NCBI RefSeq assembly: GCF_024521635.1
Contig: NW_026250423.1
Span: 186,001 to 250,000 of the forward strand
Length of the DNA: 64,000 bases
Origin: Tricharina praecox
Lineage: Eukaryota
Direction: 5' to 3'
Below are positions 60,016 through 64,000 of this stretch, in pieces. The first letter of the stretch is position 1; every line of letters begins with the position of its first letter. The translations under genes and the position numbers were made by a program. The notes under the pieces were generated by a model. The model did not search any database, was not told the origin of the DNA, and worked only from the letters and a program-made list of their open reading frames with translations.

Positions 60016-60685
60016 GGTAGATGCCTATTCGGTTGTTGTTCTTGTTAGCTGGGAAAATAGCGGGCCGATCGAGTAGTGGTATTTGGAGCCGGGAGTCAGG
60101 GGAATTCTGGGGGAGGTGATTGCGTACGGAGTAGTGAATTATTTGGTTTACCGGACACGTAAATCGGGAGGTGAATTGTTCGGAGAGGTGTGGTAGTAGT
60201 GGAGGTTGAGAGGAATTGGAATTAGTGCCAAGACTTTCGCTGGAGTGGGGCACGTCGGTCTAACCTCGACCCCTCCCTCGTCCACGCCCCTCCCCTCGCC
60301 ATTTCTCACTGTGCGCAGTCACATTTTGCACCATTCCACAAAGCGGCGGTGAACCACCTAGCCAAACAGAGAAAGAATCGCGTGTGTGCTGCCACAATCA
60401 CTCGCCCTAACCCCGCCTCACCCCCCTCCATCGTTCTGCCCGATAATTAACAGAAATTGATTTTCCCCCGCGAAGAAAAAAAGGCGGCTGAAGTGAAGTG
60501 AGTTACCTCTGGTCCCTCCCGCCCGTCTTCTCCCACACCCAAACTACACCACTCAACCCACCCCCTCCACCCCAACCTCGAGTTCTCCTTGGTACCGCCC
60601 ACGATTCCCGCTCCCGCCGACACAGACAGAGAGATCTCTTGCTAACTCCCTATCCGACCGTTAAGCGAACCTTACATCATCAATC
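60016..60685. promoter_or_regulatory. Shared divergent promoter of NAC-alpha and NAC-beta with a Homol-D-like box
   Basis: The start codons are 670 bp apart. CAGTCACA at 60316-60323 matches the Homol-D ribosomal-protein promoter element. GCCCTAACCC at about 60404 is Homol-E-like. Confidence 0.55.
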
Positions 60686-61540
60686 ATGGATCACGCAAAG
60701 CTCGCGAAGATGCAGGCGTCCGTCCGTATCGGTACGTGTCAAATAAACCCTCGGACCACACCTACACTATAGCTTGACCGGAGAACCCTGGTGGTGCTGG
60801 GGATTATTCCTTCAGGGCGGCGGGGTTGGACATTCATTGGGGCGGGGCATGGTGGAAGGTTGCGATTGATGTTGGGATATGGTTTACTGACATTCTCCTG
60901 CTGCTTAGGGTAAATACTCCTCCTCCGTCCTCCTCCATCCAACCCCTCGAGCAATGCCTCCGACCGGGACCTTCCTCATTCCAGCAACGGCTGACCGTCG
61001 GACTGTGGCTGGAGAATGTAAGGCTAATGATGGAGGGTTGATACAGCGGAAAGGGAACCCCACGGAGAAAGGTCAAGAAGGTGCACAAGAGCGCCGGAAC
61101 CGATGACAAGAAGCTTCAGGCTGCTCTCAAGAAGTTGAACGTGCAGCCCATCCAGGCTATTGAGGAGGTCAACATGTTCAAGGAGGACGGAAACGTCATC
61201 CACTTCGCCGCTCCCAAGGGTTCGTTTGTGCGATCCAGGTGGGGGAGGAATAGTGATCGCTTGAGCTTCGTACTGATTGATCCGTGTGTGTGCAGTTCAC
61301 GCGTCGGTCCCTTCCAACACCTTCGCCATCTACGGAAACGGCGAGGACAAGGAGTTGACCGAGCTCGTCCCCGGTATCCTTAACCAGCTTGGCCCCGACT
61401 CGCTCGCGTCGCTGCGAAAGCTCGCAGAGAGCTACCAGAGCCTTCAGAAGAAGGAGGGCGATGACGACAAGAAGGACGACTCCGATGACGATGACATCCC
61501 CGACCTTGTCGAGGGCAAGGACTTCGAGAACAAGGAGTAA
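60686..61540 (+). CDS. EGD1: Nascent polypeptide-associated complex beta subunit (BTF3)
   Basis: [90 protein letters not shown]. The reading frame requires a 1-nt exon at 60909. Confidence 0.95.
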
Positions 61541-64000
61541 ACCGAAACCCCAATCGGACAAAAAAAATCTCACTTCGGAGTTTCCTTTTCGATGGTTTCG
61601 TGTTGCTGTTGTGATTGTTGGCCGTCGTTGTGGGTGCTGGTTTCGCGAGTTCGGGAGAAGAGTAACGTCTCATCTGTGCCGTTTTTCTCTTGTCTTTCCA
61701 CCACCAGATTTGTGCGTCTTTAAAACGGCAATATAAGGCGACTATGAATCAAACCAGTGAGCATGCTTTCGGAGTGCGGCATCTGAACGCCCGTATTTGA
61801 ACGAAACCAGAGTATTACTACAGGTCAGAAATCAATGGTGTGTGTTCCTGGCACGTCGCAAAGCATCATTCGTGCAGACGCAGCAGACAGCGATATGGTG
61901 CGAGCATTCTGCCCATTCAGCTGGCAGGAAAGGTCGGGTATGAGGTCGCCGTAGTCTAGACAGCCCGTACGCGACGATGGATTGATGTTCTTTCTGTCAC
62001 TCGCCCATCCCTGGCTAATCATCAATAGGAATAACACCCTATCATGGTTAATTCTCCTGAAATGACAATTGAGCTACAGACTACCAAGCAACAGGCTATC
62101 CTCGTCCTCTGCAGGATAAGTCACAGGCTTCTTAAGCTGTCCCAGCTTCTCACTTGGTCCATGCCTCGGTTTACCGACCCTAGACTTCGTCCTGTCCCAA
62201 CCATCACCCTTACACCAACCGCACGCACACAGCGCAAAGAAGATCCTCTCGAACCTCCCTTTCTCGAACCCCCTCACCTCCTGCGCATACATATCCCCTC
62301 CACCGTATCAACCACTGGACAGCGCTTGCACCGTCTCCCTGCTCGGGCCTGTGCCGGCTGGGGGAGTGCAAGAGAGCTTCAGCTCCGTGTTGGCGGAGTA
62401 TTGGCCGCCTTGAAAAGGTGTCCACGGTTGAGTCAGACCTGTATACCTAAGTAAGGACTTATTGACGACAACGCGTTGATGCATGCGCAAGGAGGCAGTC
62501 GGTATACCGCCTTGTCTGGCATCGTCCAGTTTATTTGTAGCACGTACGGAATACATGCAGCACCTAATTGATGGCTGTAGGTATTTTCCTCAGCTGTTGT
62601 CTCATAATCTATGTTGCTCTCCACTCCGTTGGGAGAACTCCATCCAAATTCCGCGGACCTTTAGGGGCAGAGCCCCCTTTGATATCTTGGCCTGCAGAAA
62701 TATGCAATGTTCGCACTACGGAAAACCCGGAAACCCTTAGATAAACGGTACATACGCGATGTACATGCTTAAGTACACTGCCTCTTACTATCCTAGTCGA
62801 AAACCCCCCTTTAGAACTCCTAGCCACGCTATGGTGTACATAGTAGAAAAGACAACCACCAATTGGACGGAACCGCCATCATTGCGCGAGTGTTGGCATA
62901 TGTCGCTGGCGTTGGGATGAAGTGATGGAGAGGAAAAGGCACCGGTATATCTAGTAAGCTGAACAAGGAACGAAGCGAGGCTTGAGCATCTTGCGAAAGA
63001 AACAGGCCGGTGCATGCGAGTGGCAGTGGGCACCATAGCTTAAATGGTCCGTGATTGTTATTGAGAGTGAGTTCGGTGGCTGATGCGGCCCGTCCGGTCA
63101 GTCTTTTGCCTCGCATCAGACTGCCTACCTAAACCAGAATGTTAATCCGTCTGGTGAAAGTAGTCAGGTTACCGGTATCCTTTCGGTCGACAGGCTAGAC
63201 GGACCGAGGCCAACCATTAACGGCTGCTGCAAAAAATAATGAGCAAGATCGAAGGACCAATCAATCCAATCGAATCCTAGGAAGGATTGGAAGTTTTTGG
63301 ACCGACTGGAGTTTGGCCGGCTGCGATCCTGAAATATATCTACGCTGCGTCTGGTGGTGAGGTTGGGATAAGCGCGTGGAACTTGCCGGTCGCTTGTTTG
63401 CTACGCCGCGACTAGGCGTCGGAGAAGAGTCTTGGTGATGTTAGTTCTTACTTCTGGGATGCTAGGATAAATTGGGCCATAACCGCAAGCTCATCGCCGC
63501 GCGTCTGTGCACGAGCACGTACCGTCGTTTACTACCCAGGTGCATCTGTATGTGAGTACACCTTCCCCTCCGTCCCTCAACGGTTGCTAATACCTAGGTA
63601 CAGCGATAGGAGAACATCCGCAGGCTAGAGACATAACTAATCAACGGGAAAACGTCCCATGCTCAGCGATCCTTGAGGTCAGGGGCAAATTCATCATATG
63701 TACCTGCACCATGCTTTGTCCTCCGCTTGCATTCCCTCAACATCCGTTGCGATATCTACCGCACATACCTCGCCCCCACTACCGCCACCACGTTCTAGTG
63801 GCTTCCTAAGCGGTTTTCTACCGGAGATGAAATCGAACGGACAGTCCTCGTCATGTAGACAAAGAATTATCATGGCTTTCTGACAGAGTTGACATCAGCT
63901 TTCAGCTTTCCCGTTTTGTCTGTGTATTCATCATGCTCGCATACATTTCAGCCTTCAGCCTTCAGCCTCAGTTCCAACCACTCACCTCTCAAAGTACTCT

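Follow-up and report, generated by a model that had tools for sequence, protein, structure and literature searches.

Introduction

One-nucleotide exons have been described in the plant genes APC11 and VPS55 (Guo and Liu 2015, PMC4674806; Yu et al. 2022, PMC8831610), the Arabidopsis APC11 exon being the case of Guo and Liu (2015, PMC4674806). The authors of these studies argue for intron definition, combined with the sequential or recursive removal of the introns (PMC4674806, PMC8831610). Among fungi, a one-nucleotide exon was reported in the CYP621A P450 genes of Fusarium (Nelson and Syed 2026, PMC12940212). That report covers 24 genes, 20 of which are Fusarium orthologues, and presents the exon as the first fungal case (PMC12940212). 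In addition, a long-read annotation of Coprinopsis cinerea includes thirteen 1-nt exons (PMC12230235). An earlier interpretation of the locus studied here, made without database searches and referred to below as the sequence-only reading, had called one-base exons very rarely documented. This is a fair description, although the kind was already known from plants, from Fusarium CYP621A and from Coprinopsis.

A ratchet point is a zero-length exon of the form AG-GTAAGT (hyphens mark splice borders here and below), found in long introns of Drosophila and vertebrates, and nothing of it stays in the mRNA. Recursive splicing at ratchet points is named as a model in the Discussion of PMC4674806. Pezizomycotina are also known to carry stwintrons, in which one intron interrupts a splice signal of another and the whole is removed; they include an alternative [D1,2]/[A2,3] form, in which the two internal introns have one G in common (PMC5587772).

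Here we describe a one-base exon in the gene for the fungal NAC-beta subunit. The exon is real, supported by RNA and deeply conserved. It was found in the window, a stretch of 64,000 nucleotides from Tricharina praecox, where it consists of the single G at position 60909, between two introns that we call A and B. Our literature search, which covered one-base exons as well as stwintrons or microexons together with NAC, returned no one-base exon in NAC-beta. Similarly, neither the abstract nor the Discussion of PMC12940212 mentions NAC-beta. The NAC-beta exon is thus not previously described in the literature found, while one-base exons as such are already known.

A close likeness is to CYP621A as it is portrayed in PMC12940212. 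Both cases are fungal and spliceosomal, both have an AGGGT core whose exon G forms the second base of a conserved Gly codon, both have a phase-1 boundary that cannot be joined to a phase-2 boundary, and both draw on orthologue comparison together with public RNA support. The two genes differ in kind and in spread: NAC-beta is a housekeeping gene for a ribosome-associated chaperone subunit, whereas CYP621A is a P450 of unknown role, and the NAC-beta layout occurs in loci near seven classes of Pezizomycotina, whereas that of CYP621A occurs mostly in Fusarium (PMC12940212). Within the literature found, NAC-beta is the second fungal gene family with a described one-base exon, and its spread is far wider than that of Fusarium CYP621A, which amounts to one genus-level group. 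It also places the AG-G-GT device in a housekeeping gene, unlike Fusarium CYP621A, the only fungal case in that literature with a dedicated paper. The likeness to Coprinopsis (PMC12230235) is that of fungal nuclear genes with 1-nt exons found through transcript evidence; Coprinopsis, however, is a basidiomycete, and the passages of that report on these exons give a genome-wide count without a description of cases.

With plant APC11 and VPS55, the NAC-beta gene shares a constitutive 1-nt exon that lies between two GT-AG introns and has long been conserved (PMC4674806, PMC8831610). In the plant cases, too, the exon is missing from reference annotations, which leads to wrong N-termini (PMC4674806, PMC8831610). 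For the plant APC11 exon, tests with reporter constructs and base substitutions have been made, whereas the NAC-beta exon is known from contigs and comparison. Some plant lineages, as portrayed in the same reports, have lost both introns or show isoforms that lack the exon, whereas none of the 76 intron-bearing NAC-beta loci is without it.

Like a ratchet point, the NAC-beta junction has an acceptor directly before a strong donor, such that a 5' splice site would be regenerated after the first ligation and removal would be stepwise. In contrast to a ratchet point, where AG abuts GT and nothing is kept, the G between AG and GT is retained in the mRNA; the introns are short (177 and 137 nt), and the likeness applies only if intron A is removed first. 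With the stwintrons (PMC5587772), the locus shares its Pezizomycotina setting, two U2 introns in contact, consecutive removal and a one-nucleotide relation of the borders. Introns A and B, however, are neither nested nor overlapping, and the mRNA keeps the G that separates them.

Results

Gene structure and product

The NAC-beta gene (EGD1/BTF3-type) occupies positions 60686-61540 of the + strand, from the start ATG at 60686 to the stop TAA at 61538-61540. A match to the Pfam NAC family (PF01849) covers the exon at 61048-61218, with an E value of 7.5e-16 and a score of 58.2 bits, against a cut-off of 21.3; the last exon, searched alone against Pfam, matched no family. A protein search with the NAC-domain exon recovered 1287 relatives at E <= 0.001, and the named proteins among the best 120 of the 1287 (P0001-P0120) are fungal NAC-beta. 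The spliced product, as computed, is 97% identical to NAC-beta of Wilcoxina mikolae (P0047) and 96% identical to NAC-beta of Pyronema omphalodes (P0001). Both proteins carry the name NAC subunit beta, and the likeness extends over the full length, including the basic N-terminal RRK..KK stretch. This stretch of NAC-beta has a role in ribosome binding. By homology, the gene is that of the beta subunit of the nascent polypeptide-associated complex. Since Wilcoxina belongs to the Pyronemataceae (Pezizomycetes), these identities place the window in a Pyronemataceae-like fungus; among the public DNA runs, its best match is a soil metagenome.

The transcript begins with a 5' untranslated exon at 60536..60591 (+ strand). 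Its 5' limit is a minimum, set by the spliced contig of run X4, which begins at 60536, and its 3' border is given by the joints of runs X4 and X5, which lead from 60590/60591 to 60665/60666. This exon is followed by a 5' UTR intron of 74 nt at 60592..60665 (+), with GT at 60592 and AG at 60664-60665; the joint in X5 and X4 skips 74 (cut +1). The intron ends 20 nt upstream of the ATG and is removed in the X4 and X5 contigs.

The start-codon exon, which we call exon 1, covers 60666..60731 (+). Its coding part, 60686-60731, ends with the G that opens a Gly codon. Contigs of X3 and X4 reach up to 60731. Downstream of the junction described in the next section, the exon with the first part of the NAC domain lies at 61047..61219 (+), with the Pfam PF01849 match on 61048-61218 and cover by RNA contigs. 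Intron C (76 nt, GT..AG) follows at 61220..61295 (+), where the joint skips 76 (cut +1) in X3, X5 and X4, and the last coding exon, with an open frame up to the stop TAA, occupies 61296..61540 (+). The 3' UTR extends beyond 61700, since the RNA contigs reach 61700, which is the end of the compared stretch.

Sequence of the junction

We re-read the sequence at 60731-61047, and the coordinates and sequence description given by the sequence-only reading hold throughout. The last bases of exon 1, up to 60731, are CGT ATC G, and GTACGT comes next. Downstream of TACTGAC, CTGCTTAG ends at 60908, the next base is G60909, and GTAAAT begins at 60910; the stretch 60880-60915 reads TGGTTTACTGACATTCTCCTGCTGCTTAG G GTAAAT, in which the isolated G is position 60909. 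A second intron, GCTAAT..ATACAG in its final part, ends at 61046, and the next exon begins with C GGA AAG GGA ACC at 61047. Direct joining of 60731 to 61047 had been said to shift the frame. This was confirmed, with a stop after 45 residues, and the frame is restored by G60909, as had also been claimed, yielding the open frame of 154 residues.

The layout thus read consists of three features on the + strand. Intron A (177 nt) covers 60732..60908, with donor GTACGT, a CTGAC at 60887-60891 and acceptor TTAG; it is missing from the spliced contigs, and its parts recur in the orthologues. The branch-site match lies at A60890 within CTGAC, 18 nt before the end of the intron. The one-nucleotide exon, 60909..60909, supplies the middle base of Gly16 (G-G-C), represented by an extra G in the mRNA contigs and by AG-G-GT in the orthologues. 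Intron B (137 nt) covers 60910..61046, with donor GTAAAT, a CTAAT at 61024-61028, 19 nt before the intron end, as its branch-site match, and acceptor ATACAG; it is missing from the spliced contigs and retained in one low-depth contig of X3. Within its context TTAG-G-GTAAAT (60905-60915), G60909 therefore separates two introns that each have their own donor, branch site, acceptor and a workable length. In ATC G-G-C GGA, which is read I-G-G, this G is the second base of a Gly codon that is conserved.

Only two AG-N-GT sites occur between the two exons. Since the second (61034) would leave an intron of 10 nt, G60909 is the only usable one. The sequence-only reading had found no alternative AG in the right phase nearby. 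It needs one correction: an in-frame canonical donor, GTGTCA at 60736, does exist together with the acceptor ending at 61046, and this pair would give VRIGTGKG. We also enumerated single introns with canonical or semi-canonical ends (GT, GC or AT with AG or AC). Among the 35 combinations that keep the frame, none restores VRIGGKGT, and single introns with such ends were rejected. An Rfam search of 60400-61800 at E values up to 1 returned nothing, and so no known intron-hosted RNA that would explain the length of intron B.

RNA and DNA contigs over the locus

Parts of the stretch are present in 14 public runs, four of which (X2, X3, X4 and X5) were compared in detail. The RNA evidence consists of Logan contigs rather than reads, and its RNA nature is a guess, with X4 labelled 'DNA?'. 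We took the contigs of X3, X4 and X5 as RNA because the introns and the upstream DNA are uncovered while exon depths are in the thousands.

In spliced contigs of X3 (depth 2503), X5 and X4, representing three runs from three studies, position 60731 is joined to 61046. The joint skips 314 nucleotides with the ends GT..CA (or TA..AG), an ambiguity of 1 and no letters in between. As 315 would be skipped if the two exons were joined directly, the mRNA has one additional G. At the joint it reads CGTATCGGCGGAAAG, that is, CGTATCG-G-CGGAAAG, so the cDNA predicted by the sequence-only reading was recovered in all three runs, with exactly one extra G. The same contigs splice intron C, those of X4 and X5 also splice the 5' UTR intron, and all of these introns are GT..AG. 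The first base of intron A and the last base of intron B are both G, so that alignment cannot assign the origin of the extra G.

Taken literally, the joint could also represent a single intron of 314 nt with non-canonical ends, either GT..CA at 60732-61045 or TA..AG at 60733-61046, where the kept G would be 61046 or 60732. This is how the aligner itself reports the joint (314 skipped, GT..CA, both 1). It would also fit the composition of the contigs, among which we found neither 60731 joined to 60909 with B retained nor 60909 joined to 61047 with A retained, although contigs drop rare forms. On the other hand, the spliceosome would have to choose a CA (or TA) boundary almost every time, although a perfect AG (or GT) lies immediately next to it. 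The remaining evidence on this reading comes from the orthologues, considered in the next section.

Spliced contigs might instead derive from an intronless retrocopy elsewhere, in which case this locus would not be expressed as proposed, and it is true that X4, labelled 'DNA?', carries the joined form. However, the spliced contigs of X3, X5 and X4 match the exons and UTRs of the window with 0 other letters, their depths run into the thousands with introns and upstream DNA at none, and the 64-kb window does not contain the 30-mer of the mature junction. Moreover, the layout is kept in 76 of 76 orthologous loci, for which a dead parent gene offers no explanation. We consider a retrocopy extremely improbable.

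Another possibility is an assembly error, whereby the genome would truly have an extra G, as the last base of exon 1 or the first base of the next exon, and a single ordinary intron in between. A DNA contig of X2, which comes from another sample and carries four substitutions and one deletion relative to the window, is unbroken over 60730-61188 and shows no difference at 60905-60912 or at 61044-61048, which speaks against such an error. As the contig starts at 60730, its agreement bears on the start of the next exon and not on the exon 1 end. The same one-base mismatch, however, occurs in 76 of 76 intron-bearing loci from many assemblies, and an assembly error, to which we give hardly any credence, is close to refuted.

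The VRIGTGKG joint from the donor GTGTCA at 60736 was not present in the X3, X5 or X4 contigs. One further contig of X3, of 161 nt, spans 60898-61058 at a depth of 59, compared with 2503 for the mRNA contig of that run. It contains intron B with exactly 12 nt on each side, and the remainder of intron A as well as intron C are uncovered in X3. We considered this contig as a splicing intermediate and rejected it as such, given that it still carries 11 nt of intron A; our guess is that it may be one amplified pre-mRNA fragment.

In X2, the second soil DNA run, the region 61126-61354 is represented by short contigs at depths of 20-170 with 2-8 differences. They cover conserved coding parts only, and beyond the exon borders their sequence no longer resembles the window. 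These are probably NAC-beta genes of other fungi in the sample.

Conservation in orthologous loci

We scanned metagenome contigs with the NAC-beta protein alignment, which gave 409 confirmed matches, and kept the best 80 of the 409 (L001-L080). Four of the 80 loci are intronless and cDNA-like, with a single open frame that reads VRIGGKGT. The other 76 are intron-bearing, and every one of them ends exon 1 with ATH G-GT and starts the next exon with AG-N GGN. The one-base phase mismatch and an internal AG-G-GT were likewise found in all 76 intron-bearing loci, L062, L070 and L080 included. Among the 80 loci, no cDNA-like contig could be paired with a genomic locus at an identity of at least 93%, and the direct comparison of cDNA with genome is therefore limited to the species of the window.

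From the 76 metagenome loci and the window, we obtained 61 distinct intervening sequences. They form 38 clusters, between which the introns show no detectable similarity. The sequence-only reading had proposed to look for AG-G-GT in EGD1 orthologues, and the motif is present in 61/61 distinct sequences and in 38/38 clusters. The density of AGGGT in the window is 0.79 per kb, and a single AGGGT within 315 nt is not rare in itself. Its recurrence across orthologues is another matter: AGGGT occurs in all 61 sequences, compared with 9.1 on average and 18 at most over 500 shuffles, and it is the only 5-mer that all 61 have in common. An AGGGT that also matches the donor consensus, has a CTRAY branch site 8-40 nt upstream and leaves at least 45 nt on either side is rare, with a shuffle mean of 0.12 sequences out of 61, and yet 59 of the 61 sequences contain one.

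Position by position, all 38 cluster representatives have a pyrimidine at -3, A at -2, G at -1, the exon G, G at +1 and T at +2, followed by A at +3 in 37/38 and G at +5 in 34/38. At the third position of the codon, directly after intron B, the orthologues vary among A, C, T and G, whereas the middle G is invariant, because a Gly codon requires G there.

Intron A measures 54-475 nt in the orthologues (median 98.5; 77 nt in L013), intron B 82-190 nt (median 135) and the neighbouring intron C 52-224 nt (median 95). The total intervening sequence is never shorter than 162 nt, so that two introns, one of 54 nt or more and the other of 82 nt or more, would always fit.

It is this comparison of orthologues that decides in favour of two introns over one. 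A single intron of 314 nt leaves unexplained both the internal YAG-G-GTA.G with its upstream branch site, found in 61/61 sequences and 38/38 clusters, and an intervening length of at least 162 nt, with room for 54 + 82 nt. We regard the single non-canonical intron as very unlikely. What is observed is a mature mRNA with exactly one extra G and a genomic layout that is kept in every orthologue examined. We are strongly confident that G60909 is a genuine, constitutively included one-nucleotide exon of NAC-beta, lying between two complete U2-type GT-AG introns.

Two minor observations concern the same loci. First, L016, L017, L070 and L080 have 3-residue insertions in exon 1 (MQQAAQSVRI, MQQSKQESVRI, MQESKQDGVRI), and despite these insertions they retain both the exon end ATH G-GT and the internal AG-G-GT. 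Second, intron B has a minimum of 82 nt, and the great majority of its 60 distinct sequences fall within 113-162 nt, while intron C goes down to 52 nt. As to whether introns A and B are unusually long, only the 82-nt minimum of B and its narrow spread stand out, and they do so weakly. Beyond the splice signals, no conserved motif was found in intron B.

Taxonomic spread

Each locus was placed by its nearest named protein, and only matches of at least 90% were used to assign a class; such placement is blurred, as many public models contain translated intron. Within these bounds, the intron-bearing loci have as their nearest genera Wilcoxina (Pezizomycetes, Pyronemataceae), Dactylellina (Orbiliomycetes), Didymella, Ophiobolus and Lizonia (Dothideomycetes), Rhinocladiella and Microsporum (Eurotiomycetes), Alectoria (Lecanoromycetes), Halenospora (Leotiomycetes) and Sarea (Sareomycetes). 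No Sordariomycete occurs among the best 120 of the 1287 proteins or the best 80 of the 409 loci. The one-base exon layout is hence found in loci nearest to seven classes of Pezizomycotina, and this distribution, drawn from unnamed contigs, points to an origin of the exon at or before the base of the Pezizomycotina.

Proposed order of intron removal

Intron definition is usual for the short introns of fungi. We infer that introns A and B would likewise each be recognised as a unit, and that they would be removed one after the other rather than together, since only ~20 nt at most separate the donor of B from the acceptor and branch site of A, which is too close for two spliceosomes acting simultaneously. 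If A were removed first, exon 1 would be ligated to G60909, and the resulting joint, TCGG-GTAAAT, would serve as the 5' splice site for B; this route would resemble recursive splicing with one base left behind. If B were removed first, A would then be removed to the same acceptor. Either order would produce the same mRNA and avoid the frame-shifting joint of exon 1 to 61047, as in neither would the exon 1 donor pair with the branch site of B, a pairing that would skip the G. Ordered or recursive-like splicing, as put forward by the sequence-only reading, is in this light a reasonable inference, though the contigs include no intermediate with one intron removed.

The sequence-only reading had also suggested that skipping of the exon would offer a regulatory switch based on NMD. 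This received no support, as the skipped joint of 60731 to 61047 does not occur in the contigs, though contigs drop rare forms; the idea of an NMD switch is speculation. In its fullest form, it would hold that the one-base exon became fixed before the Pezizomycotina diverged from their common ancestor, and that all sampled lineages have retained it because it is used as an NMD-coupled switch of NAC-beta dosage. The exon 1 donor would then occasionally pair with the branch site of intron B, the G would be skipped, and the outcome would be a frame-shifted transcript targeted by NMD. NAC-beta output would thereby be tuned by splicing kinetics, and the exon would not merely have been retained because its loss needs two exact intron deletions. 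We think this unlikely. If true, it would represent splicing-coupled dosage control built on the smallest possible exon in a highly expressed housekeeping gene.

Under the reading that we prefer, a constitutively included one-base exon between two complete introns, the locus offers a natural test system, as it would provide a highly expressed, constitutive one-base exon in tractable filamentous fungi. Such a system could reveal how the spliceosome handles abutting introns, including the order of their removal, recursion and the avoidance of skipping.

Public gene models at the junction

We examined how public proteins read the junction. Among the best 120 of the 1287 relatives, 24 read VRIG-GKG. 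When only the 64 organism-named models within these best 120 of 1287 are considered, 13 read VRIG-GKG; of the remaining 51, 16 add one to three residues, five are without one Gly, 19 translate intron and 11 are without exon 1.

The 16 organism-named models (of 64, in the best 120 of 1287) that read VRIG plus 1-3 extra residues raise the question of whether the main mRNA might use the donor GTGTCA at 60736 with the acceptor at 61046, to give VRIGTGKG with one extra Thr, as many public models have it. This intron would be in frame and GT-AG. However, X3, X5 and X4 all join 60731 to 61046, and the four cDNA-like contigs of other species read VRIGGKGT. As the main form, the GTGTCA donor is refuted, and its chance of being right after all is negligible. 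Compared with the reading in which G60909 forms an exon of its own, the public models of Pezizomycotina NAC-beta are, to judge from their sequences, mostly wrong at the one-base-exon junction. A fixed rule for this junction would repair the conserved N-terminus that adjoins the basic RRK..KK stretch.
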